From assembly GCA_038240075.1 (NCBI GenBank), contig JBBSEC010000003.1, positions 5,753-69,752 of the forward strand: 64,000 bases of DNA, written 5' to 3'. The position numbers and the translations under genes were made by a program. The notes beneath the pieces are model-generated. The model was not told the origin of the DNA. It did no database searches and was given only the letters and a program-made list of their open reading frames with translations. Positions 2,305 to 36,830 of this stretch are shown one piece after another; the first letter of the stretch is position 1, and each line of letters opens with the position of its first letter. The DNA comes from Acidimicrobiia bacterium. Its GTDB lineage: Bacteria > Actinomycetota > Acidimicrobiia > IMCC26256 > PALSA-610.

Positions 2305-3569
2305 TGGTCGAGTCCGAGCCGCCCACGAAGCCGGCGATCAGCCGGCGTCGCTTCGTCGGTGGCCTTGGCGCCGCGGGCGCGGTGGGCGTGGGTGCCGCGC
2401 TCGTCGGCAAGTCGGTGATCTGGACCGATTCCGACGGCTCCGACGCGACGACGAGCACCGCGCCGGCGGTCGATTTCTACGGCGCGCATCAAGCGGGCAT
2501 CGCGACGCCGGCCCAGGACCGGCTCCTGTTCGGAGCGTTCGACGTCACGAGTGCGAGCCGCGCGGATCTGGTTGCGCTGCTGAAGCAGTGGACGAGCGCG
2601 TGCGCTCATTTCGCAGGCGGTCGGCAGATTGGCCGCAACGACGTCGAGGCGGCGCCCCCGGACGACACGGGAGAGGCGCTCGATCTCGCTCCCGCGCGCC
2701 TCACGATGACCTTCGGGTTCGGACCGACGATGTTCGACGACCGCTTCGGGCTCTCCGGCAAGCGGCCCGCGGCGCTGATCGACCTTCCCGCGTTCGACCA
2801 CGACAACATCGATCCCGCGATCTCGGGCGGCGACATCGGCGTGCAGGTGTGCGCCGACGATCCGACGGTCGCGTTCCACGCGCTACGCAACCTCACGCGG
2901 ATCGGCAAGGGCGTGGTCGGCCTGCGGTGGACGCAGCTCGGGTTCGGCCGCACCTCGAGCACGAGTGCGAGTCAGGAAACGCCCCGCAACCTGATGGGGT
3001 TCAAAGACGGCACCAACAACGTCGCGGGCGACAACCGTGCGCTCATGGAGTCGCAGGTGTGGGTCGGGCCCAGCGATCAACCGGCGTGGATGCGGGGTGG
3101 TTCCTACCTCGTCGCGCGCCGGATCCGGATGCGTATCGAGCAGTGGGACCGTGACTTCCTCGGCGATCAGGAGAACGTGATCGGACGAATCAAGTCGACG
3201 GGCGCGCCACTCGGCCGGCTCCACGAACGCGATCTGGTTCCTCTTGAGGCAGCACACGCCGACGGATCGCTCGTCATCCCGCCCGACGCGCACATTCGGT
3301 TGGCCGCGCCGGCGACGAACGGGGGCGCGCACCTCCTGCGCCGCGGGTACTCGTTCACCGATGGGGTCAGCCCGGTGACCGCGGGGCTCGACGCCGGTCT
3401 CTTCTTCCTGGCCTACATGCGCGATCCGCGCAAGCAGTTCGTGCCGATCCAGAACCGGCTGGCTGCGAACGACGCGCTGAACGAGTACATCGAGCACGGG
3501 TCGACCGCCATCTTCGCGGTGCCGCCCGGAGTCGAGCACGGCGGCTACATCGGTGGAACACTCCTCTGA
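2304..3569 (+). CDS. efeB: Dyp-type peroxidase EfeB with Tat signal
   Basis: SRRRFVGGLGAAGAV twin-arginine leader and Dyp-like body. The ATG overlaps the TAA of the preceding gene (TAATG), consistent with an efeUOB operon. Confidence 0.9.
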   Translation: MVESEPPTKPAISRRRFVGGLGAAGAVGVGAALVGKSVIWTDSDGSDATTSTAPAVDFYGAHQAGIATPAQDRLLFGAFDVTSASRADLVALLKQWTSACAHFAGGRQIGRNDVEAAPPDDTGEALDLAPARLTMTFGFGPTMFDDRFGLSGKRPAALIDLPAFDHDNIDPAISGGDIGVQVCADDPTVAFHALRNLTRIGKGVVGLRWTQLGFGRTSSTSASQETPRNLMGFKDGTNNVAGDNRALMESQVWVGPSDQPAWMRGGSYLVARRIRMRIEQWDRDFLGDQENVIGRIKSTGAPLGRLHERDLVPLEAAHADGSLVIPPDAHIRLAAPATNGGAHLLRRGYSFTDGVSPVTAGLDAGLFFLAYMRDPRKQFVPIQNRLAANDALNEYIEHGSTAIFAVPPGVEHGGYIGGTLL

Positions 3570-3640
3570 GCAGCCGCAGCGAGGGCGAGCAGTGCGGCAC
3601 ATGACGGTGAGGCGCATGCGGATGCGACCATGAGGCGGGC
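3570..3640 (+). repeat. family-1 intergenic module, copy A (diverged)
   Basis: GCAGCCGCAGCGAGGGCGAGCAGTGCGGCACATGACGGTGAGGCGCATGCGGATGCGACCATGAGGCGGGC aligns with the copies at 5859, 12443, 12515 and 36751. It fills the whole efeB-stop to next-ATG spacer. Confidence 0.6.
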
Positions 3641-4021
3641 ATGAAGAAGAGTGATGCGCTCGCACGCGTGCGCAAGATCTGTATGGCCTTCCCGGCGACG
3701 GAGGAGCGTCTGAGTCACGGCGCACCGACGTTCTTCGCGGGGGGCAAGAAGACCTTCGTCATGTTCCTCGACGATCACCACGGCGACGGCCGCCTCGCCA
3801 TCTGGTGCAGCGCTCCGCCCGGGATCCAGGCGACGCTCGTCGACGAGGAGCCCACGCGCTTCTTCGTGCCGGCCTATGTCGGCACCCGGGGCTGGGTCGG
3901 CGTGCGCCTCGATATCGATGTCGATTGGGACGAGGTCGCCGGCATCATCGACGACGGGTTCCGCGAAGTTGCGACGAAGCGCCTGATCGCCGAGCATGAG
4001 CAGAGCAGACGCACGAAATGA
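3641..4021 (+). CDS. MmcQ/YjbR-family protein
   Basis: 126 aa. KICMAFPATEERLSHGAPTFF...RGWVGVRLD pattern typical of the YjbR/MmcQ fold. Confidence 0.8.
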   Translation: MKKSDALARVRKICMAFPATEERLSHGAPTFFAGGKKTFVMFLDDHHGDGRLAIWCSAPPGIQATLVDEEPTRFFVPAYVGTRGWVGVRLDIDVDWDEVAGIIDDGFREVATKRLIAEHEQSRRTK

Positions 4022-4524
4022 CGGAGGACGGCATGGCGGCGCAACCAATGGGCCACGGGGTGAAGCAGCGCGACGTCATCAAGATGTCCGACGCGGAGGT
4101 GGATGGGTTTCTTCGTGACGGGCGCACCATGTCGTTCGCGACGATGAACCACGACGCGACGATCCACGTCGTGGCGATGTGGTACGGATTTCTCGAAGGA
4201 GCGATCGCGTTCGAGACGAAGGCGAAGTCGCAGAAGGTGCGCAATCTGCTGCGCAATCCGACCATCACGTGCATGGTCGAAGACGGCACGACGTATGAGG
4301 AGCTTCGCGGCGTCGAGCTCGTTGGCACCGCCGAGATCATCGACGACCCCGAGCGGATGTACGAGCTCGGGATCAGCGTCTTCGAGCGGTATCAAGGGCC
4401 GTACAGCGAAGAGATGCGCCCGTTCGTCGAGGTCATGCTCAACAAGCGCGTCGTCGTGAAGATCGCGGTCGACCGCGCCGTCTCCTGGGACCACCGCAAG
4501 CTCGGCCTGCCGCCCACGGCTTGA
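4018..4524 (+). CDS. pyridoxamine 5'-phosphate oxidase-like (PPOX-class, probably F420/FMN-dependent) protein
   Basis: 168 aa. PPOX-like split-barrel sequence (MSFATMNHDATIHVVAMWY...). ATGA overlap with the previous gene. Confidence 0.8.
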   Translation: MTEDGMAAQPMGHGVKQRDVIKMSDAEVDGFLRDGRTMSFATMNHDATIHVVAMWYGFLEGAIAFETKAKSQKVRNLLRNPTITCMVEDGTTYEELRGVELVGTAEIIDDPERMYELGISVFERYQGPYSEEMRPFVEVMLNKRVVVKIAVDRAVSWDHRKLGLPPTA

Positions 4525-5852
4525 GCGCCCCGCCGAGTCCGCTGCCTGCAATCGCGCCGGGGCCGCCGGCCGCGACCATCACGTTTCCGTGGGACGACGC
4601 CGGCGCGCCCGACCCGGTCGCGGCGCTCACCGCCGCGCGTGCCGAGCTCGGCGACACGTTCGTCGTCGACTCGGGTCCCGACCGCTACCTGTTCGTGTTC
4701 GGCGGTGTCGCGCTCACGAACTTCTACGCGCTCCCCGAACGGATCGCGAGCAAGGGCCTCGCCGACTACCGCATGTTGTTGCGCAAGCTGCCCGACGAGC
4801 TGTTCCTCGGCCGGCGCACCTACGCGCACGACTTGTTCGGCGTGCAGGAGGTCGAGGGATACCTCGATCACCTCGATCTCGCGGTCGACCGGCAGATCGC
4901 CGAGCTCGGCGACGCAGGAACCTTCGACGCGTTCGCGTTGGCGCGCCGCCTCGGCCACCGTCTTGCCCTCGGCTGCTGGATGGGCGACGCCGCGGCCGCG
5001 CCTCCGCAGCTCGACACGCTCATCGCCGACCTCGAGTGTCTCGATGGCGCGGAGGCGTTCGTGAACCCGGAACGCATGGCCGGCCGCGACGGAGTCAAGG
5101 CCGTCGAGCGCGCCGCGCTCGCTCGCATCGAGTCGGTGGTTGCGTCGCGTCTCGCGAGCGCGGAGAGCCGCGATCCGGACCCCGATGGCTTTTTCGGTGA
5201 GATCGCACACCGCTGGGACGACGTCGACGCTTCGGAGCGGGTTCGCGGCGTGACCGGCGACGTCGTGCTGCTGCACGTGGCGACGATGACGAATCTCTTC
5301 GCGGCGCTGGGATGGACCCTGTCCCTCGTGCTGCTCGACGAGCGCGTCCGCGCGCGGGTCGAGGCCGGAGCCGACCGTGCCTACCTCGACCGCTGCGCGC
5401 TCGAAGCGATCCGGATCGGACAGCGCTCGATCATGCTGCGGTCAGTCTTGAAGCCGTGCGACTTCGACGACGGCACCGCGAGCTTTCACCTCGATCCTGG
5501 AGTGCTCCTCGCGACCATGCTCCCGCTCACGAACACGACGGCCCTGGCCGGCCTCGCCGACTTCGATCCCGATCGCTGGGACGGTCGCCGCCTGCGCGAG
5601 GCCGACGAGCTCGACGCGAAGGAGGTCGTCACCACCTTCGGGCACGGTGGTCATCGCTGTCCGGCGCAACGGTTCTCCCTGTCGGCGATCGACCGCGCGG
5701 GCGAGCGGCTCTTCGCGACCTTCGAGCTGCGGCCGCGCTTCGATTCGGTGCGCCCGATCCCGTCACAGATCGGGGGAGTGGCGCGCGCGGCCGACCCGTG
5801 TCCTGTCGACTACGTCCGCAGGCCCGCCGGTACTCTGCGCCCAGTCATTTAG
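4521..5852 (+). CDS. cytochrome P450
   Basis: Heme-thiolate loop FGHGGHRCPAQ near the C-terminus. TTG start overlaps the upstream TGA. Confidence 0.9.
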   Translation: MSAPPSPLPAIAPGPPAATITFPWDDAGAPDPVAALTAARAELGDTFVVDSGPDRYLFVFGGVALTNFYALPERIASKGLADYRMLLRKLPDELFLGRRTYAHDLFGVQEVEGYLDHLDLAVDRQIAELGDAGTFDAFALARRLGHRLALGCWMGDAAAAPPQLDTLIADLECLDGAEAFVNPERMAGRDGVKAVERAALARIESVVASRLASAESRDPDPDGFFGEIAHRWDDVDASERVRGVTGDVVLLHVATMTNLFAALGWTLSLVLLDERVRARVEAGADRAYLDRCALEAIRIGQRSIMLRSVLKPCDFDDGTASFHLDPGVLLATMLPLTNTTALAGLADFDPDRWDGRRLREADELDAKEVVTTFGHGGHRCPAQRFSLSAIDRAGERLFATFELRPRFDSVRPIPSQIGGVARAADPCPVDYVRRPAGTLRPVI

Positions 5853-5858
5853 GGGGCC

Positions 5859-5938
5859 GGAGCAGGCGCAGCCGGCGTGACGAGCGCGACGCGAGACGGC
5901 GAAGCGCATGCGGATGCGACAATGGGAGCGGGGGTTCT
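5859..5938 (+). repeat. family-1 intergenic module, copy B
   Basis: GGAGCAGGCGCAGCCGGCGTGACGAGCGCGACGCGAGACGGCGAAGCGCATGCGGATGCGACAATG... starts 6 nt after the P450 TAG and runs to the ATG at 5939. Confidence 0.7.
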
Positions 5939-7030
5939 ATGGCCGACGAGATCGAGTTCGAGACACCGTGGCGGCGTGACCTCGGCGAGCTGGGGACCGC
6001 GCTCGGTACCTGGGTCGCCGAAACCGTCGGGCCCGACGCGACCGTCGTCGACGTCGCATCGCCGGGCAACGGCATGTCGAGCGAGACGGTGTTGTTCGCG
6101 GTGCGTTCGGGTCGCGAGCTCGATCACTACGCGGCCCGCCTCGCGCCGCTCCCCGAGCTCTATCCGGTCTTCCCGCAGTACGACCTCGAGTTGCAGCGCC
6201 GGTGCATGGACCTGGTGCGCGCGCACACCGACGTTCCTGCGCCCGAGGTCGTCTGGAGCGTGGCCGACCCGAAGTGGCTGGGCACGCCGTTTCTCGTGAT
6301 GCGCCGCATCGACGGCGAGTCGCCGCCCGACATCCCTCCGTACGTCTTCGGCGGCTGGATGATGGACGCCACCCCTGAGGAGCGCGCGCAGCTCCAGAAC
6401 AGCTCGGTGAGTGTGATCGCGCGTCTGCACGAGATCACGCCGGCGAGTCACGACCTCGCGTTTCTCACGCAACCCGAGCACGGCACCTCCGCGCTCGATC
6501 AACAGCTCGGCTACCAGCGTTGGTACTACGAGTGGGCGCGCGACGGGGTCACGTACCCGTTGATCGAGGCGACGCTCGCGTGGCTCGACGCGAACCGCCC
6601 CGACGAAGGACCGACCGTCCTCAATTGGGGCGATGCGCGCATCGGCAACATGCTCTACCGCGATTTCGAACCCGTCGCCGTGCTCGACTGGGAGATGGCG
6701 ACCGTCGGTCCCGCCGAGATCGACATCGCGTGGATGGTGTTCCTGCACAGCTTCTTCAACGATCTCGCGCAGAAGTTCGAGCTTCCCGGCATCCCCGACT
6801 TCATGCAGCGTGACGACGTCGCGCGCACCTACGAGCAGATGACGGGCCGCGCGGTCGGCCCGCTCGAGTGGTTCGAGGTCTTCGCGGCGCTGCGCTTCGC
6901 CGTCGTCTCGATCCGCACGAGCACGCGTGGCATCGCCTACGGGACGATGGAGAAGCCCGACGACCCCGACGATCTCGTGATGTTCCGCAGCCTCCTCGAG
7001 CAGATGCTCGACGGCAGCTACTGGCAGTAA
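5939..7030 (+). CDS. phosphotransferase (APH/choline-kinase-like) family protein
   Basis: In frame with track ORF 5312..7030. The ATG at 5939 gives MADEIEFETPW... Kinase-like motifs LNWGDARIGNML and VLDWEMATVG are present. The upstream Arg/Pro-rich extension looks non-coding. Confidence 0.85.
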   Translation: MADEIEFETPWRRDLGELGTALGTWVAETVGPDATVVDVASPGNGMSSETVLFAVRSGRELDHYAARLAPLPELYPVFPQYDLELQRRCMDLVRAHTDVPAPEVVWSVADPKWLGTPFLVMRRIDGESPPDIPPYVFGGWMMDATPEERAQLQNSSVSVIARLHEITPASHDLAFLTQPEHGTSALDQQLGYQRWYYEWARDGVTYPLIEATLAWLDANRPDEGPTVLNWGDARIGNMLYRDFEPVAVLDWEMATVGPAEIDIAWMVFLHSFFNDLAQKFELPGIPDFMQRDDVARTYEQMTGRAVGPLEWFEVFAALRFAVVSIRTSTRGIAYGTMEKPDDPDDLVMFRSLLEQMLDGSYWQ

Positions 7031-7032
7031 CA

Positions 7033-7881
7033 GTGGGAAAGCGCTTCGCGGGTCGCAATGTGATCGTCACCGGTGGCAGCCGCGGCATCGGCGCGGCGCT
7101 GGCCGAGCGGCTCGCGGCCGAGGGCGCGTCGGTCGTGATCGCGGCGCGCACGCTCGAGCGGCACGATCATCTCGCCGGCAGCCTGAACGAGACCGTCGAA
7201 CGCTGCCGGCGATACGGCACGACGGTCGAGGCCGTCGTCGCCGATCTCGCCGACGACACGAGTCGCGCCGCGATCGTTCCGCGCGCCCTCGACGTGTTCG
7301 ACGGGCGGGTCGACATCCTCGTGAACAACGCGGCCGCGGCCGTTTACCAGTCGACGCTCGGCTACTCGTTGCGACGCCGCCGCGTGATGTTCGAGGTGAA
7401 CGTCGAGGCGCCGATCGATCTCACGCAGGCGGTCGTGCCGTCGATGACCGAGCGAGGTGAGGGTTGGATCGTGAACGTCTCGAGCGCGACGGCCCGCCAC
7501 GCGCCCGGCCCGCCGTACCGCACCGGCGGGGTGCATTCCGTCATCGGTGTCTACGGAGCGACGAAGGCCGCGCTCAACCGCATCACCCACGCGTTCGCGG
7601 TGGAGCTGTTCGGAACCGGGATCCGCATCAACACGATCGAGCCCCGCGCCGCGGTGATGAGCGAAGGCGCCGAGGCGCTCGTCGGCGGGATGGTCGGCGA
7701 CGAGTCGATCGAGTCGATGGAGGCGATGGTCGAGGGCACGCTCGTGCTGTGCGACTGCCCCGTCGAGCGCACCGGCGGTGTGCACGTGAGCCTCGACCTG
7801 CTCGACGATCTCGGCCTCACGGTGATGACGATCGACGGATCCGCGCCGTACCCTGGCGGCCAGCGGGTGGTGCGCACATGA
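7033..7881 (+). CDS. SDR family oxidoreductase
   Basis: GTG 7033 gives VGKRFAGRNVIVTGGSRGIGAA (TGxxxGxG). YGATKAAL catalytic YxxxK is present. Confidence 0.85.
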   Translation: MGKRFAGRNVIVTGGSRGIGAALAERLAAEGASVVIAARTLERHDHLAGSLNETVERCRRYGTTVEAVVADLADDTSRAAIVPRALDVFDGRVDILVNNAAAAVYQSTLGYSLRRRRVMFEVNVEAPIDLTQAVVPSMTERGEGWIVNVSSATARHAPGPPYRTGGVHSVIGVYGATKAALNRITHAFAVELFGTGIRINTIEPRAAVMSEGAEALVGGMVGDESIESMEAMVEGTLVLCDCPVERTGGVHVSLDLLDDLGLTVMTIDGSAPYPGGQRVVRT

Positions 7882-10994: not shown

Positions 10995-12443
10995 GTGCTC
11001 GAGTACCAGCAGCTGTTCATCGGTGGCGAGTGGGTCGACCCCGCCGGCAAGGCCACCATCGACGTCATCTCGCCCCACTCCGAGGAGCTCGTCGGACGCT
11101 GCCCCGAGGGCACGACTGCCGACATGGACCGCGCCGTCGCCGCGGCGCGCACCACCTTCGACGACGGCACGTGGAGCCTGGCCGCTCCGGCCGACCGCAT
11201 CGCGGTGGTCACCAAGTTCGCCGAGCTCTATGCCGCGAACATGATGGAGCTCGCCGGCGTCATCACCACCGAGATGGGCTCGCCGATCTCGTTCTCGCAG
11301 CTCGCGCAGACACCCGCACCGTGGTTGATGTTGAACTCCTTCATCGGCGTCGCGTCCGAGTACCCGTGGGAAGAGCGGCGCGCGGGCACGCTGGCTCCCG
11401 AGGTCCTCGTACGTCACGAGGGCACCGGTGTGGTCGCGGCCATCGTTCCGTGGAACGTGCCGCAGTTCGTCACGATGGCGAAGCTCGCGCCCGCGTTGCT
11501 CGCCGGCTGCTCGATCGTCATCAAGCCCGCACCCGAGACCCCGCTCGACGCGCTGTTCGTCTGCAACCTCCTCGAGGAAGCCGGCGTGCCCAAGGGTGTC
11601 GTGAGCGTGGTTCCCGCCGGCCGTGAGGTCGGTGAGCACCTCGTGCGCCACCCCGGTGTCGACAAGGTCGCGTTCACCGGCTCGACCGCGGCCGGTCGCA
11701 AGATCGCGGCGATCTGCGGTGAGCAGCTCAAGCGCGTCAGCCTCGAGCTCGGCGGCAAGTCGGCGGCCATCATCCTCGACGACGCGGATCTCGCCGCGAC
11801 GGTCGAGGGCCTGAAGTTCGCGTCGCTGATGAACAACGGTCAGGCGTGCGTCGCGCAGACCCGCATCCTCGCTTCGAACAAGCGTTACGACGAGGTCGTC
11901 GAGGCGCTCTCGGCGATGGTCGGCGGGCTCAAGGTCGGCGACCCGGCCGACGCGACCACCGAGATCGGGCCGCTCGTGGCCGAGCGTCAGCAGGAGCGGG
12001 TCGAGAAGTACATCGCGCTCGGTCAGGAAGAGGGCGCGCGCGTCGCGGTCGGCGGCAACGGCCGCCCAGACGGCACCGAAAAGGGCTGGTACGTGCGGCC
12101 CACCGTCTTCGCCGGCGTCGACAACAGCATGCGGATCGCGCGTGAGGAGATCTTCGGTCCCGTGATCGCGGTGATCCCCTACGACGACGAGAAGCAGGCG
12201 GTGCAGATCGCCAACGACAGCGAGTACGGCCTCGCCGGCTCGGTGTGGACGGCCGACATGGGCAAGGGCATGGACATCGCCCGCCGCGTGCGCGCCGGAA
12301 CCTTCGGTGTGAACCAGTACACGATGGACTTCATCGCACCGTTTGGCGGCTACAAGGCGTCGGGCATCGGCCGTGAGTTCGGTCGCGAGGGTCTCGAGGA
12401 GTACCTCGAGCTCAAGTCCATCGTCGCCCCTCCCGGCGCGTAG
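10995..12443 (+). CDS. NAD(P)-dependent aldehyde dehydrogenase
   Basis: 482 aa. FTGSTAAGRKI, ELGGKSA and NNGQACVAQTR (catalytic Cys) motifs. Confidence 0.95.
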   Translation: MLEYQQLFIGGEWVDPAGKATIDVISPHSEELVGRCPEGTTADMDRAVAAARTTFDDGTWSLAAPADRIAVVTKFAELYAANMMELAGVITTEMGSPISFSQLAQTPAPWLMLNSFIGVASEYPWEERRAGTLAPEVLVRHEGTGVVAAIVPWNVPQFVTMAKLAPALLAGCSIVIKPAPETPLDALFVCNLLEEAGVPKGVVSVVPAGREVGEHLVRHPGVDKVAFTGSTAAGRKIAAICGEQLKRVSLELGGKSAAIILDDADLAATVEGLKFASLMNNGQACVAQTRILASNKRYDEVVEALSAMVGGLKVGDPADATTEIGPLVAERQQERVEKYIALGQEEGARVAVGGNGRPDGTEKGWYVRPTVFAGVDNSMRIAREEIFGPVIAVIPYDDEKQAVQIANDSEYGLAGSVWTADMGKGMDIARRVRAGTFGVNQYTMDFIAPFGGYKASGIGREFGREGLEEYLELKSIVAPPGA

Positions 12444-12577
12444 GAGCAGGCGCAACCGCGGTGACCAGTGCAACGCACGACGGTGAAGCGCCCGCGCATG
12501 CGACCGGCCAAACAGGAGCAGGCGCAACCGCGGTGACCAGTGCAACGCACGACGGTGAAGCGCCCGCGCATGCGACC
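12443..12577 (+). repeat. family-1 intergenic module, two perfect tandem copies (C1 12443-12505, C2 12515-12577)
   Basis: An identical 63-nt unit occurs twice, 72-nt period. It spans from the last base of the ALDH TAG to the base before the P450 ATG. Confidence 0.85.
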
Positions 12578-13750
12578 ATGAATTACGACCCGTACGACTA
12601 CGCGATCGACGCGGATCCGCATCCGGTCTGGAAGCGGATGCGCGACGACGCGCCCGTCTACTGGAACGAGCAGTACCAGTTCTGGGCGTTGAGCCGCTTC
12701 GCCGACGTCTACGAGGCGTCGCGCGACATCGAGACGTTCAGCTCGGCGCGCGGCACGGTGCTCGAGTTGATCGATCACCCGATCGAGGCGTTCGCGCCGA
12801 TGATCTTCCAGGATCCGCCGTATCACACGGTGCTGCGGGCGCTGGTGAGTCGGGCGTTCACGCCGCGTCGCATCGCGTCGCTCGAGGCTCGCATTCGCGA
12901 GCTGGTCGCCGAATACCTCGACCCGTGGATCGGTGCCGGCGAGTTCGACTTCGTGCAGGAGTTCGCGGCGAAGTTGCCCGCGATGGTGATCGGCTCGTTG
13001 CTCGGTGTCCCGGAGGGCGATCAGGACACCGTTCGCCGCCAGACCGACGAGATGCTGCACATCGAGCCGGGCGAAACGATGACCGACAAACGCGAGGTCA
13101 TGGACCTCTACGGCTACTGGTTCGAGCTGATCAAGGAGCGCCGCGCCCAACCGCGCGACGACATGATCAGCGCGCTGCTGGCGTCGGAGATGATCGGCGA
13201 CGACGGTGAGCCCCGCCGCCTCGACGACATGGAGCTGCTCGCGTTCATCGGCCTGCTCTCGGGCGCCGGCAACGAGACGGTTGCGCGCCTCTTGAGCTGG
13301 GCCGCGGTGCTGCTCGCGCGTCACCCCGACCAGCGCGCGCAGCTCGTCGCCGATCCTGCGGGTCTGCTCCCGAACGCGGTCGAGGAGCTCCTGCGCTACG
13401 AGGCACCGTCGCCGATCCAGGCCCGCTGGGTGACCCGCCCCGTCGAGCTGCACGGAGTTTCGATCCCGGCCGAGTGCAAGATCGCGCTGCTCACGGGCAG
13501 CGCCGGGCGCGACGAACGCGAGTACCCCGACGCCGATCGCTTCGACGTGCGCCGAACCTTCAGCCGGCACGCGTCGTTCGGTTACGGACCGCACTTCTGT
13601 CTCGGCGCGGCGCTCGCGCGGCTCGAAGCCCGCGTCGCGCTCGAGGAGACGCTGGCCCGCTTCCCGACCTGGGACATCGACGAGTCAGGGCTGCGCTGGG
13701 TGCACACCAGCACCGTGCGCGGCTACGAAACGGTGCCCTTCAGCGGCTGA
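12578..13750 (+). CDS. cytochrome P450
   Basis: MNYDPYDYAIDADPHPVW start and FGYGPHFCLGAALARLE heme loop. The track ORF starts at 12461 only because the repeat is in frame. Confidence 0.9.
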   Translation: MNYDPYDYAIDADPHPVWKRMRDDAPVYWNEQYQFWALSRFADVYEASRDIETFSSARGTVLELIDHPIEAFAPMIFQDPPYHTVLRALVSRAFTPRRIASLEARIRELVAEYLDPWIGAGEFDFVQEFAAKLPAMVIGSLLGVPEGDQDTVRRQTDEMLHIEPGETMTDKREVMDLYGYWFELIKERRAQPRDDMISALLASEMIGDDGEPRRLDDMELLAFIGLLSGAGNETVARLLSWAAVLLARHPDQRAQLVADPAGLLPNAVEELLRYEAPSPIQARWVTRPVELHGVSIPAECKIALLTGSAGRDEREYPDADRFDVRRTFSRHASFGYGPHFCLGAALARLEARVALEETLARFPTWDIDESGLRWVHTSTVRGYETVPFSG

Positions 13751-21034: not shown

Positions 21035-22282
21035 TTACCGGTAGAAGCCGGGGCTCGTCGCGCCGTCGGGCCGACCCTCGAGCGGTACCCGCAGCTCTTC
21101 GACCGTCGGGCCGACCCGCGCCGCGATCGGCGCGAGCTTGTCGAGATCGAAGCCGTAGACCTTCGCCGCGGTGCGTGCGAGCACCTGCTGCAGGTCGGCG
21201 GCCGACCACTCGGAGAAGCCCATGCGCAGCAGCTCGCGCGAGTACGGCGTCGAGCCTTCGTGGTGCGGGTAGTCGCTGCCCCACATCATGTTCTCGAGGC
21301 CGAGCCTCAACATGGCCTTCGCCTCGATGACGCCGGGGAAGCTCACACCGACGTAGCAGCTCTGCTTGAAATACTCGCTCGGCGGCCGCGGCAGACGATT
21401 GTCGGCGTCGAACTTCAGCTCACCGATGCGACCACCCGCCATCTGCATGTGGAAGCCGTCGAGCATGCGCAAGGTGTCGACGAGCCACGAGCAGCCCTGC
21501 TCGGTCAGCACGAACTTGAGCTTGGGGAACCGCTCGAAGACGCCGCTCATCATCACCTGCCAGAACGCGCGGTGCGCGAACCACGCGGTCTCGATGAGCC
21601 ACATCGCTCCGCCCGACGGTGCGTCGCCGTAGTCGGGGTGACCGCTCCCGGAGTGGTAGTTGACCGGCATGTCGAGCTCTTCGCAGGTGCGCCAGAACGG
21701 GTCGTACTCGGCGCAGAAGTAGGGAAGGATGTCGGTGTCGTCGGGAACGCCGGGGATGAGCACGCCACCGCGCAGACCGTGCGCGTGCGCCCATTTCACC
21801 TCGGCGATCGCGGCGTCGATGTCGTTCGCGAACACCTGCGCGATACCGGCGCGGCGATCGGGTTGGTTCGCACACCAGTCGGCGAGCCAACGGTTGTGCG
21901 CGCGCAGGCCGGCCCAGCGCAGCTCGAGATCGGCCGGGCTCGGCGGACGCGCGACGAGCGCGCCGGTCGGGAAGAACGGAGGCACCGTGTTCGGGAACAC
22001 GATCTCGGCGACCTGGCCGTCGGCTTCGAGGTCGGCGATGCGCCGCTCGTCGTCCCAGTTGCGGCTGCGGCTGCTGCCCTGCAGGTCGCGGAAGGGGTTC
22101 TTGTACTCGCCCCTCCACGCCTCGTAGTCGGGGACGTACTTCTCCTCGAGGTAGCCGCGGTACTGCTCCATCGATCCGCCGGCGTGGCAGTCGGCGGAGA
22201 CGATCACGTAGCGGTCGGTGAGTGGTCCGCCGGTCGCGTCGAAATCCGGGCCGGTCTTCGGGTCCTTCGTTGCTGTCGTCAC
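21035..22282 (-). CDS. amidohydrolase-2 family protein
   Basis: 415 aa. VSADCHAG...WGSDYPHHEG metal-ligand pattern. Confidence 0.9.
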   Translation of the reverse strand: MTTATKDPKTGPDFDATGGPLTDRYVIVSADCHAGGSMEQYRGYLEEKYVPDYEAWRGEYKNPFRDLQGSSRSRNWDDERRIADLEADGQVAEIVFPNTVPPFFPTGALVARPPSPADLELRWAGLRAHNRWLADWCANQPDRRAGIAQVFANDIDAAIAEVKWAHAHGLRGGVLIPGVPDDTDILPYFCAEYDPFWRTCEELDMPVNYHSGSGHPDYGDAPSGGAMWLIETAWFAHRAFWQVMMSGVFERFPKLKFVLTEQGCSWLVDTLRMLDGFHMQMAGGRIGELKFDADNRLPRPPSEYFKQSCYVGVSFPGVIEAKAMLRLGLENMMWGSDYPHHEGSTPYSRELLRMGFSEWSAADLQQVLARTAAKVYGFDLDKLAPIAARVGPTVEELRVPLEGRPDGATSPGFYR

Positions 22283-22285
22283 AAA

Positions 22286-22303
22286 CCTGACGCTAGCGTC
22301 AGG
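22286..22303. promoter_or_regulatory. perfect 18-bp palindrome filling a 26-bp divergent intergenic region
   Basis: CCTGACGCTAGCGTCAGG lies between GTG 22282 (minus-strand gene) and ATG 22309 (plus-strand gene). Confidence 0.5.
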
Positions 22304-22308
22304 CCCTC

Positions 22309-23148
22309 ATGACCAGCGACTCCACAGCTGATGTCCTCGATATCTGGGTGAACCTCGTGACCGAGAAGTCGGCCGCGCAGTTCCTCGGACAGCCCGAGAA
22401 CGCCCATATTCCGGGCTATCTGGGCGGTGACGGCAGCGCGGGGGTCGGCGTCGACGCCCTGCTCGGCGTGATGGACGAACAGGGCGTGGCGACCGGGATC
22501 CTCACGTCGGGCGTCGACCGCGGTGGTGCCGAGGCGATGCTCGAGGTCGCCGACGCGCACCCGGGACGGTTCCTCGTGTGCGCGGTGCTGAGCGAGCGAC
22601 TGCGCCCGACGCGCGACGTCCGCCGCATCCGTGAGCTCGCCGAGCACCCGCGGTTCGCGATGCTGCGCGTCACGCCGCTCGCGACCCAGGTGCCCATCAA
22701 CGACGCGCGTCACTACCCGGCGTATCAGATCTGCGAAGAGCTCGGTATCCCCGTCGGCATCAACGTCGGGATTCCCGGGCCGCGCGTGCGATCCCGCGTG
22801 CAGCATCCCGAGCTGCTCGAAGACGTGATGATCGACTTCCCTGATCTCGTGATCATCGGCGCGCACATGGGCCACCCGTACGAAGAGCTGCTCATGAACT
22901 ACATGCGCAAGTGGCCGAACCTCTACCTGTCGTGCACGGCGTACGCGCCGCGGTACTTCGACCCCGCGCTCGTGCGCTTCATGAACACGAAGGCGTTCCG
23001 CGGCCGGGTGATCTGGGGGAGCGACGAACCGTGGTTCCCGATGCGTCGGTCGCTGTCGGAGGCGCGGGCCCTGCCGATCGACGAGGAGGCGATGGCGCTC
23101 TTCCTCGGAGGCTCGGCGCGGCGCCTGCTCGACCGCACTGCTCGCTAG
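22309..23148 (+). CDS. amidohydrolase-2 family protein
   Basis: 279 aa. IIGAHMGHPY...IWGSDEPWFP pattern. Confidence 0.9.
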   Translation: MTSDSTADVLDIWVNLVTEKSAAQFLGQPENAHIPGYLGGDGSAGVGVDALLGVMDEQGVATGILTSGVDRGGAEAMLEVADAHPGRFLVCAVLSERLRPTRDVRRIRELAEHPRFAMLRVTPLATQVPINDARHYPAYQICEELGIPVGINVGIPGPRVRSRVQHPELLEDVMIDFPDLVIIGAHMGHPYEELLMNYMRKWPNLYLSCTAYAPRYFDPALVRFMNTKAFRGRVIWGSDEPWFPMRRSLSEARALPIDEEAMALFLGGSARRLLDRTAR

Positions 23149-23185
23149 TAGGAGCGGCGGAGGCACGCCGTTGTGCTATCCCCAC

Positions 23186-23247
23186 GGTCGCACACGCATG
23201 CGCTTCACCGTCTGCTCGTCATTGAGCACGGCCGCTGCGTCTGCTCC
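23186..23247 (-). repeat. family-1 module, copy E (inverted orientation, 1-nt indel)
   Basis: The reverse complement reads GGAGCAGACGCAGCGGCCGTGCTCAATGACGAGCAGACGGTGAAGCGCATGCGTGTGCGACC. Confidence 0.55.
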
Positions 23248-35908: not shown

Positions 35909-36751
35909 ATGGCCGATCGCGACTACGAGATGATCACCTTCGAGCAGCAGGACAACGGCGTCGCGTGGCTGACGCTCAGCCGCCCACAGGTGCACAACGC
36001 CTTCAACATCCAGATGCGCAACGAGCTGAAGGACTGCTGGCGTTCCTTACGCTACGACGACGACGTCCGTTGCGTCGTGCTCACGGGGGCGGGCGAGCGG
36101 GCCTTCTGCACCGGGATCGACCGCACGGAGACGATGGGCGACGGCTATCCCGCCGACGGGGCCGCAAAGAAGGAAGGCGGGACCGGCTTCGCGAAGTCGC
36201 CGTGGATGTTCGACGACCCCGGCGACGAGATCGGCCCGAAGTCGTGCGATCTCTGGAAACCCGTCATCGCGGCAGTGAACGGCATCGCGTGCGGTGGCGC
36301 GTTCTACATGCTCGGTGAGGTCGAGTTCATCATCGCCGCGGACCACGCGACGTTCTTCGACCCCCACGTCACCTACGGCATGACGCCGGTGTTCGAGCCG
36401 ATCCACGTGATGCAAAAGATGCCGTTCCACGAGATCATGCGGATCTCGCTGCTCGGCAACCACGAACGCATGTCGGCGAAGCGCGCGCACGAGATCGGGT
36501 TCGTCTCGGAGGTCGCGCCCCTCGCCGAATTGCGTGAGCGCGCGCAGTGGGCGGCCGACGCGATCGCGTCGGCTCCGGCCCTCGCGACGGCGGGTGCCGT
36601 GCGTGCGCTCTGGATGGCGCTCGAGCTCTCTCGGAAACAGGCGCTCGACATGGGCTTCTCGCTCATCCGGATCGGCAGCGATCCCGCGAGCATCTCCGAA
36701 GGCCAGGAGAAGTTCGCGGGCGGACAGCGCATCGAGCCGAGGATCCGGTAG
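35909..36751 (+). CDS. enoyl-CoA hydratase/crotonase family protein
   Basis: 280 aa. LTGAGERAFCTGID...AVNGIACGGA. Confidence 0.9.
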   Translation: MADRDYEMITFEQQDNGVAWLTLSRPQVHNAFNIQMRNELKDCWRSLRYDDDVRCVVLTGAGERAFCTGIDRTETMGDGYPADGAAKKEGGTGFAKSPWMFDDPGDEIGPKSCDLWKPVIAAVNGIACGGAFYMLGEVEFIIAADHATFFDPHVTYGMTPVFEPIHVMQKMPFHEIMRISLLGNHERMSAKRAHEIGFVSEVAPLAELRERAQWAADAIASAPALATAGAVRALWMALELSRKQALDMGFSLIRIGSDPASISEGQEKFAGGQRIEPRIR

Positions 36752-36830
36752 GAGCGATCGCAACCGGCGTGACCAGTGCGACACAGGACGGACCAGCGCA
36801 TGCGAGCGCGACCGTGAGAATGATTCCAAC
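36751..36830 (+). repeat. family-1 intergenic module, copy D
   Basis: GGAGCGATCGCAACCGGCGTGACCAGTGCGACACAGGACGGACCAGCGCATGCGAGCGCGACCGTGAGAATGATTCCAAC runs from the last base of the crotonase TAG to the ligase GTG. Confidence 0.7.

Follow-up and report, generated by a model that had tools for sequence, protein, structure and literature searches.

A lineage-restricted interspersed repeat with a covarying terminal stem in an uncultured soil lineage of Actinomycetota

Positions 5859–5938 of a contig segment from an Acidimicrobiia bacterium (hereafter the window, meaning the whole 64-kb stretch that was analysed, with a G+C content of ~68–70%) contain a copy of a lineage-restricted, non-autonomous interspersed repeat found in an uncultured soil lineage of Actinomycetota. 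This repeat makes up a new family within a well-known class of bacterial elements, similar to the interspersed repetitive units of mycobacteria (MIRUs) or the miniature inverted-repeat transposable elements (MITEs). Comparison with close relatives, whose orthologous junctions are empty, with stop and start codons that overlap or nearly touch, indicates that the element is an insertion. Its two ends form a terminal stem that is under selection for pairing, whereas three inner helices proposed in a first-pass annotation of the same sequence are not part of its conserved structure. As an explanation of the whole, we lean, with confidence slightly above even, toward a MIRU-like or MITE-like insertion with paired ends, whose stem couples the translation of the flanking genes.

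Composition and distribution of the repeat family

The unit consists of a 65-nt core and a variable linker of 6–9 nt, and occurs either singly or in head-to-tail arrays of two to five units with a period of 71–72 nt. Within the window, repeat search, nhmmer and cmsearch together yielded six insertions comprising seven units. Five plus-strand units were reported by the repeat search, namely copies A, B and D and two units of copy C, and the profile search added the minus-strand copy E. A covariance model applied with cmsearch assigned 63–85 bits to the true copies and 20 bits to the best background match; this gap establishes that the family is real, sharply bounded and far above chance.

Copy B, the subject of the first-pass annotation, has its core at 5859–5923 on the plus strand (nhmmer E ~1e-16; cmsearch 80.9 bits) and is numbered here so that unit position n equals 5858 + n, unit position 1 being 5859. 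Copy A (3567–3631, plus strand) lies between genes for a Dyp peroxidase and a YjbR protein, and the TGA of its upstream gene forms columns 1–3 of the unit. Copy C, also recovered with Tandem Repeats Finder, comprises two identical plus-strand units (12443–12507 and 12515–12579; period 72) between an aldehyde dehydrogenase gene and a P450 gene. Copy D (36751–36815, plus strand) separates an enoyl-CoA hydratase gene from an ATP-dependent DNA ligase gene, with the TAG of the upstream gene ending at column 1. Copy E (23184–23247, minus strand; found with nhmmer, cmsearch 72.8 bits, neighbours assigned with Pfam) is located in a convergent gap, 186 nt downstream of a minus-strand hydrolase gene. 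Near it, at 22279–23166, long open reading frames (ORFs) on opposite strands overlap; the plus-strand ORF at 22309–23148 encodes an amidohydrolase (Pfam E 5e-33), and the overlapping minus-strand ORF has no match. Given this plus-strand gene, copy E sits in a convergent gap rather than upstream of a gene start.

To compare copies, 20 distinct full-length units were aligned over 65 columns, whose numbers equal the unit positions used in the first-pass annotation. The units were drawn from the window, one metagenome-assembled genome (MAG), soil metagenome contigs and syntenic loci of relatives; loci outside the window are denoted by L numbers. A degenerate-pattern scan of species-representative genomes returned 19 matches, of which two were real (L008 and L013) and 17 were chance matches. 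Both real loci belong to "MAG TPA_asm: Actinomycetota bacterium CTOTU10851", L013 consisting of three tandem units with a period of 71. Among the chance matches, about ten fall in one conserved Solirubrobacterales coding sequence (CCGAGCGCGCGCACCTTCTC...GAGTAGCGACGGTCGTG) unrelated to the element; those in Solirubrobacterales MAGs are L003, L005, L006, L011, L012, L014, L015, L017 and L018. Scanning of metagenome contigs, with a pattern that left the variable stem positions free on both sides, identified ten real loci (L021–L023, L025 and L027–L032), two of which, L025 and L030, duplicate L008 and L013; two further matches (L024 and L026) were rejected as chance.

Orthologues of the APH-family phosphotransferase encoded downstream of copy B led to seven syntenic loci (L033–L039); the orthologues bear the labels of Actinomycetota or Acidimicrobiia MAGs. 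Two copies are present in L033, a five-unit array in L038 and two diverged units in L037, and no copy was found at L034, L035, L036 or L039. A scan of viral contigs likewise found none. Searches against Rfam gave no match, either over the whole window at gathering thresholds or over 3500–6000, which covers copies A and B, at E values up to 10. A tRNA-derived origin was rejected, as ARAGORN finds no tRNA in the window.

Terminal stem and insertion at gene junctions

The terminal helix pairs columns 4–11 (GCAGNCGC) with columns 52–59 (GCGNATGC), with seven of the eight positions complementary. RNAalifold recovers it as the only helix in the family consensus, joining columns 4–6 to 57–59 and 8–11 to 52–55. 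When mutual information was computed for all column pairs, 8–55 ranked first (1.11) and 6–57 second (0.74); both lie in the same antiparallel register and are bordered by invariant complementary runs. Pair 6–57 is intact in all 20 copies, as A-T in 16 and G-C in 4 (permutation p 2e-4). Pair 8–55 is intact in 16 of 20 (C-G in 8, A-T in 5, G-C in 2 and T-A in 1; permutation p 3e-4), the exceptions being G.G in three copies and A.G in one, and in the eight copies with a base other than G at column 55, column 8 is always its exact complement. The window alone shows four different Watson–Crick pairs at 8–55 among five insertions. None of 500 shuffles reached the observed covariation score of the terminal helix, and sliding its 3′ partner by 1–3 columns causes the pairing to collapse. 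Columns 6, 8, 55 and 57 were left as N in both search patterns, and their variation is hence unbiased by the searches.

Within this stem, columns 7 and 56 form a G.A mismatch that is conserved in 16 of 20 copies, and the helix is often lengthened by pairing of columns 1–2 with 62–63. Its predicted probability averages 0.71 and is at least 0.75 in 13 of the 20 copies. In copy B, the arms defined by RNAalifold and pair counts, and for the 5′ arm also by mutual information, are located on the plus strand at 5862–5869 (columns 4–11, GCAGGCGC) and 5910–5917 (columns 52–59, GCGGATGC). Here the G at 5866 (column 8) faces the G at 5913 (column 55) in a G.G mismatch, and the predicted probability of the helix is 0.37 as against the family mean. 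In related strains from two other metagenome runs, X3 and X5, the orthologous copy B carries C at 5866 and thereby regains C-G at 8–55.

Filled and empty versions were compared at four sites in up to six relatives. At the site of copy B, between the P450-like and APH genes, the window and L037 are filled, the latter with two diverged units; L033, L036 and L039 are empty with overlapping stop and start codons (TGATG in L033 and L036), and L034 is empty with a 3-nt gap. The site of copy A is filled in the window and empty in L036, where the Dyp and YjbR genes meet in an ATGA overlap. At the site of copy C, the window and L033 (a degenerate copy) are filled, and L034, L035 and L036 are empty. Conversely, the junction between APH and adh_short is empty in the window, L034, L035 and L036, and filled in L033 by one unit and in L038 by five head-to-tail units with a period of 72 (L038:5232–5584). 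Over 9–21 kb, no copy is present in relatives whose APH is 80–86% identical and whose gene order is conserved. In the closest relative (APH 88% identical), the two units at site B (L037:5600–5750, each ~70 nt) score 35 and 27 bits, and may represent a sister sub-family or an old, decayed insertion. A target-site duplication was sought and none was found: the longest flanking direct repeat averages 4.69 nt compared with 4.70 nt in mismatched controls, and such repeats are inconsistent in position and length, those of 7 nt at L021 and L013 remaining within the control maximum. Empty alleles were also sought among reads, where only assembler chimeras between copies A and B appeared.

Of 17 insertions, 14 are in the sense orientation relative to the gene or genes beside them and three are antisense (one-sided binomial p ~0.006). 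The antisense copies are L013, between two minus-strand genes, L027b, between two plus-strand genes, and L032. Copy E and its upstream gene lie on the minus strand whereas A–D lie on the plus strand, which shows that orientation follows the local gene strand. Copies A, B, C, D, L021, L028, L033a and L038 are situated between same-strand genes, and E, L008 and L023b occupy other types of gap; by Pfam assignment, the flanking genes are functionally unrelated.

For copy B, the gap between the flanking genes spans 5853–5938. The upstream P450-like gene (ORF 4521–5852, plus strand) ends with a TAG at 5850–5852, 6 nt 5′ of the core, in agreement with C-terminal alignment to orthologues. The downstream APH gene (5939–7030, plus strand; Pfam PF01636, E 1e-24) begins at the ATG at 5939, a start backed by the agreement of its N-terminus, MADEIEFE, with orthologues. 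The linker between core and gene (5924–5938, plus strand), delimited by comparison of filled and empty sites, contains the Shine–Dalgarno-like motifs GGGAG and GGGGG and is similar to the G-rich 3′ tail that the upstream gene has in element-free relatives. A promoter and terminator scan of 5600–6100 gave no match.

Several neighbouring genes use stop or start codons supplied by the element, whose terminal start codon (ATG or GTG) occupies columns 64–66. The P450 gene of the window starts at the terminal ATG of the second unit of copy C (MNYDPYDY, compared with VKTEIVYDPYDY in relatives). Its longest ORF (12461–13750, 429 aa) opens with a GTG that lies in unit 1 and extends across the two units, and orthologue alignment places the true start at the ATG at 12578, the alternative adding a spurious 39-aa N-terminal extension. 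In L033 and L038, adh_short starts at the terminal ATG of the element, in L038 that of the last unit. In L038, the APH gene no longer has a stop of its own and terminates at a TGA inside the element, giving 375 instead of 364 aa, and the gene upstream of L008 ends at the TGA of columns 20–22. In copy A, the terminal ATG opens a 4-codon ORF that overlaps the YjbR start as ATGA; in copy D, the terminal GTG opens a 6-codon ORF that overlaps the ligase start as GTGA. A two-unit array (L031:6405–6541, minus strand; 144 nt, 48 codons) lies in frame within a short-chain dehydrogenase (SDR) gene (ORF 6098–7240, minus strand), the adh_short_C2 profile covering positions 6–187 before the array and a C-terminal motif following it.

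Possible roles of the stem and competing readings

The favoured reading places the role of the stem in the transcript. The element would be co-transcribed with the neighbouring genes, and the stem would tie up a Shine–Dalgarno-like GGAG (columns 1–4), along with the bases immediately 5′ of the terminal start codon, within a helix. Ribosomes that terminate at the 5′ arm, or shortly ahead of it, would melt this helix; downstream translation would thereby stay coupled to upstream translation, and insertion at a coupled junction would be tolerated. The 5′ arm begins 0–10 nt past the upstream stop in copies A, B, C, D and L028, and one to four nt separate the end of the 3′ arm from the terminal start codon. 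Both the strong sense bias and the coupled nature of the invaded junctions fit such a role.

A number of observations weigh against this reading or limit the data behind it. In one metatranscriptome run, the depth over copy C was 0; read mapping was performed at 85% likeness, where paralogues swamp the counts. The stems of the three antisense copies are intact, and the covarying cells include no G.U; both features are at least as compatible with a constraint on DNA as with one on RNA. Copy E and several others are not beside an upstream stop or a downstream start, and a coupling role therefore cannot be general. In a sub-family made up of B, L022, L033a and the L038 array, G.G or A.G stands at 8–55, so pairing at these columns is no strict requirement. 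Folding of whole units gave no signal: the energies do not surpass those of dinucleotide shuffles on either strand (z −0.6 to +0.4), and the minimum-free-energy folds differ from copy to copy. In a neighbour-joining tree built without columns 6, 8, 55 and 57, the four G-C copies of 6–57 fall in four separate places, but the tree is poorly resolved, so that their separate origin is a weak point. In most copies, the search patterns dictated the five invariant stem pairs, which are therefore uninformative, and the alignment amounts to 20 distinct sequences, some of them related by tandem duplication.

The strongest competitor, which we consider possible but clearly less probable, is that the stem is a DNA-level mobilisation feature with no role in RNA, either a single-stranded DNA hairpin or foldback recognized by an HUH/Y1-type enzyme or the paired termini of a MITE. 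The orientation and position biases would then arise from target choice and from the purging of harmful insertions. Covariation limited to Watson–Crick pairs, and hence equal on both strands, is what such a feature would leave; the paired arms lie at the unit termini, L013, L027b and L032 retain intact stems in antisense, and presence is patchy among close relatives. In known hairpin substrates, irregular bases serve recognition, and the G.A mismatch of the element's stem may be comparable. This possibility is countered by the lack of a target-site duplication beyond control level, by arrays that run head-to-tail rather than as inverted pairs, and by the 14 of 17 insertions in the sense orientation. 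Moreover, within the 64-kb window, orientation follows the local gene strand (E versus A–D) instead of one replication direction.

A bolder variant of the transcript role, which we regard as unlikely, would make the element a self-insulating mobile intercistronic cassette, with the covarying stem as a ribosome-opened gate that frees the terminal AUG or GUG. If so, the element would invade coupled junctions such as TGATG and ATGA without polar effects, donating stop and start codons, and structure-mediated translational coupling would be a trait of a mobile element rather than of the host operon.

A further proposal holds that each unit encodes a small, translationally coupled peptide from the GTG frame at columns 19–21 (VTSAxxDGEAHADAT), as proposed for the ORFs of MIRUs. 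Ten of 20 copies have GTGA at columns 19–22, an overlapping stop and start (ATGA in L008), and the terminal mini-ORFs of A and D run into ATGA or GTGA overlaps with the next gene. The L031 array is in frame inside the SDR gene, and a weak three-base periodicity accompanies a pN/pS of 0.60 over columns 13–36, which the search patterns left unbiased, with 4 of 300 column shuffles as low. However, a second frame gives a pN/pS of 0.59, so the signal is not frame-specific. A GTG or ATG start at columns 19–21 is present in only 11 of 20 copies, indels of 1–2 nt occur in 4 of 20, and in-frame TGA codons interrupt L027b and L033a in the 20-copy alignment, and also the L038 units. Thirteen of 20 copies keep the frame open, in line with the ~0.65 that chance predicts for 21 codons of the same composition; array periods of 71 occur as well as 72, and the apparent restriction to synonymous variation at columns 42 and 63 was partly forced by the search pattern. 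As the first-pass annotation had recorded, the GTG frame of copy B (5877–6299, plus strand) does not end at the downstream start and continues out of frame for 360 nt into the APH gene; its start codon is not conserved across the family, and it is not a gene. Sequence comparison thus makes a conserved peptide unlikely, and we attach little credence to the coupled-peptide proposal as a whole.

The same annotation had derived three inner helices from copy C, namely 8–11 with 46–49, 13–16 with 39–42 and 26–29 with 33–36, and suggested that they are kept by compensatory change as an RNA or DNA hairpin. Their coordinates are exact in copy C (unit position 1 at 12443 or 12515), and the two double changes of copy B relative to C, A13G with T42C and T27C with A35G, can be read directly and preserve pairing; the third helix also appears in the minimum-free-energy folds of the second unit of C and of L013a and L013b. 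Across the 20 copies, however, pairs 13–42 (mutual information 0.12, permutation p 0.37) and 27–35 (0.06 and 0.21) vary independently, and the two double changes are not above chance. With more copies aligned, a comparison that the annotation itself had named as able to refute its model, the covariation of the inner helices stays within the shuffled range, 67 of 500 shuffles reaching the score (19 copies). Among the 12 pairs proposed, four lack pairing in roughly half of the copies or more: 8–49 in 15, 29–33 in 15, 15–40 in 9 and 26–36 in 8, with 2 more gapped. Copy B itself has A at position 36, a G.A break of pair 26–36 that had been missed. Per-unit partition functions give the three helices mean pair probabilities of 0.00, 0.11 and 0.14, and the 5′ arm of the first is taken by the better-supported terminal stem. 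Independent variation of the paired positions means that the inner-helix model fails by the standard it had set for itself, and we give it almost no credence; the more general suggestion, that covariation supports a hairpin, survives for the terminal helix.

Equally improbable is the reading of the repeat as a dispersed operator, with the octamer CGCATGCG as the binding site of a dimeric regulator. This palindromic core had been described as common to all copies, and it does occur in all six window insertions, but in copy C it lies 5 nt further 3′ in the gapless alignment than in A, B, D and E; in the family it is found at columns 47–54 in only 7 of 20 copies, with the non-palindromic CGCACGCG in 9. 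Its 8 occurrences in the window compare with 5.9 ± 2.3 expected and are reached by 25 of 100 shuffles, and the genes flanking the copies are functionally unrelated. A riboswitch was rejected together with the operator. So was an integron attC site: the consensus ends in GCGACCATG and has no GTTRRRY, and the flanking genes are syntenic in element-free relatives.

Relation to known repeats and practical bearing

By description, the closest analogue is the MIRU family. MIRUs are described as 40–100 bp units located in operon gaps and transcribed with the operon, apparently mobile and inserted at start codons with a −4 coupled ORF, and as having imperfect inverted termini (Supply et al. 1997, as reported in PMC12548453 and PMC3184786). 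The present element likewise has a unit of 40–100 bp between co-oriented genes; most copies are in the sense orientation, the 14 to 3 split given above being a strong bias rather than a rule. It forms head-to-tail arrays of variable number, mostly one unit but two in C and L031, three in L013 and five in L038. The same site holds 0, 1 or 5 units across relatives, giving filled and empty sites; insertion is at start codons, and the ends are imperfectly inverted. The −4 overlap (ATGA or GTGA) is shared in copies A and D only, where it stems from the terminal ATG or GTG and not from the GTG at columns 19–21. Differences include the host, a distinct and uncultured actinobacterial lineage; the internal ORF, which is not conserved (a start in 11 of 20 copies, frameshifts and stops); and the flanking tetranucleotide repeats described for MIRU, which were not found here. 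The terminal stem of the element covaries, whereas MIRUs are said to have been originally described without dyad symmetry.

Repetitive extragenic palindromic (REP) sequences and bacterial interspersed mosaic elements (BIMEs) share with it a short, GC-rich extragenic repeat whose stem pairing is kept by compensatory change, a frequent position just 3′ of a stop codon and many copies per genome. However, a REP is a 20–40-nt hairpin with a small loop, whereas here 7–9 bp close a conserved interior of 40 nt, and BIMEs alternate inverted pairs, in contrast to the head-to-tail arrays and strong sense bias of the element. Identity with REP or BIME was rejected on the grounds of this interior and of the head-to-tail order of all arrays. 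MITEs such as Correia, Nezha and ERIC-like elements are likewise small, non-autonomous, intergenic and patchy among relatives, with inverted termini. In contrast to them, the element is amplified in tandem, its termini covary, which transposase-bound terminal inverted repeats do not need to do, and its neighbours use its stop and start codons precisely. A classical MITE was rejected, since no target-site duplication is detectable. The L031 array of 48 codons recalls the Rickettsia palindromic elements, palindromic repeats that can lie in frame inside protein-coding genes; it is, however, a single intragenic case in a family whose copies are mostly intergenic, and size, host and sequence are unrelated. 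Searching the literature for comparable MITEs or stem-loop repeats in actinobacteria returned nothing relevant.

Cultured bacteria are well known to contain small interspersed repeats, but such repeats have rarely been described from uncultured soil Actinomycetota. The evidence for this family is unusually clean, comprising filled and empty overlapping junctions, adopted stop and start codons, an in-frame intragenic array and a compensatory stem, which makes it a good natural system for examining how a mobile element sits harmlessly between translationally coupled genes. There are also practical consequences. Such repeats could pass for riboswitch-like RNAs, and they mislead gene callers, as exemplified by the 429-aa "P450" called from the GTG at 12461 and the 375-aa APH in L038. 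They also break short-read assemblies, and contigs end at copy C.

Two minor observations concern individual loci. At L029 (1620–1715), upstream of lepA, the copy has GGGGGAG 5′ of it and CTCCCCC 3′ of it, which form an additional 7-bp inverted repeat outside the element; the insertion may have landed in a pre-existing hairpin. At 12438–12504 of the window, in the soil run that contains the window genome, the assembler word depth is ~92 compared with 12–36 in the flanks; this high depth and the contig ends at the array fit a many-copy element that interrupts short-read assembly.

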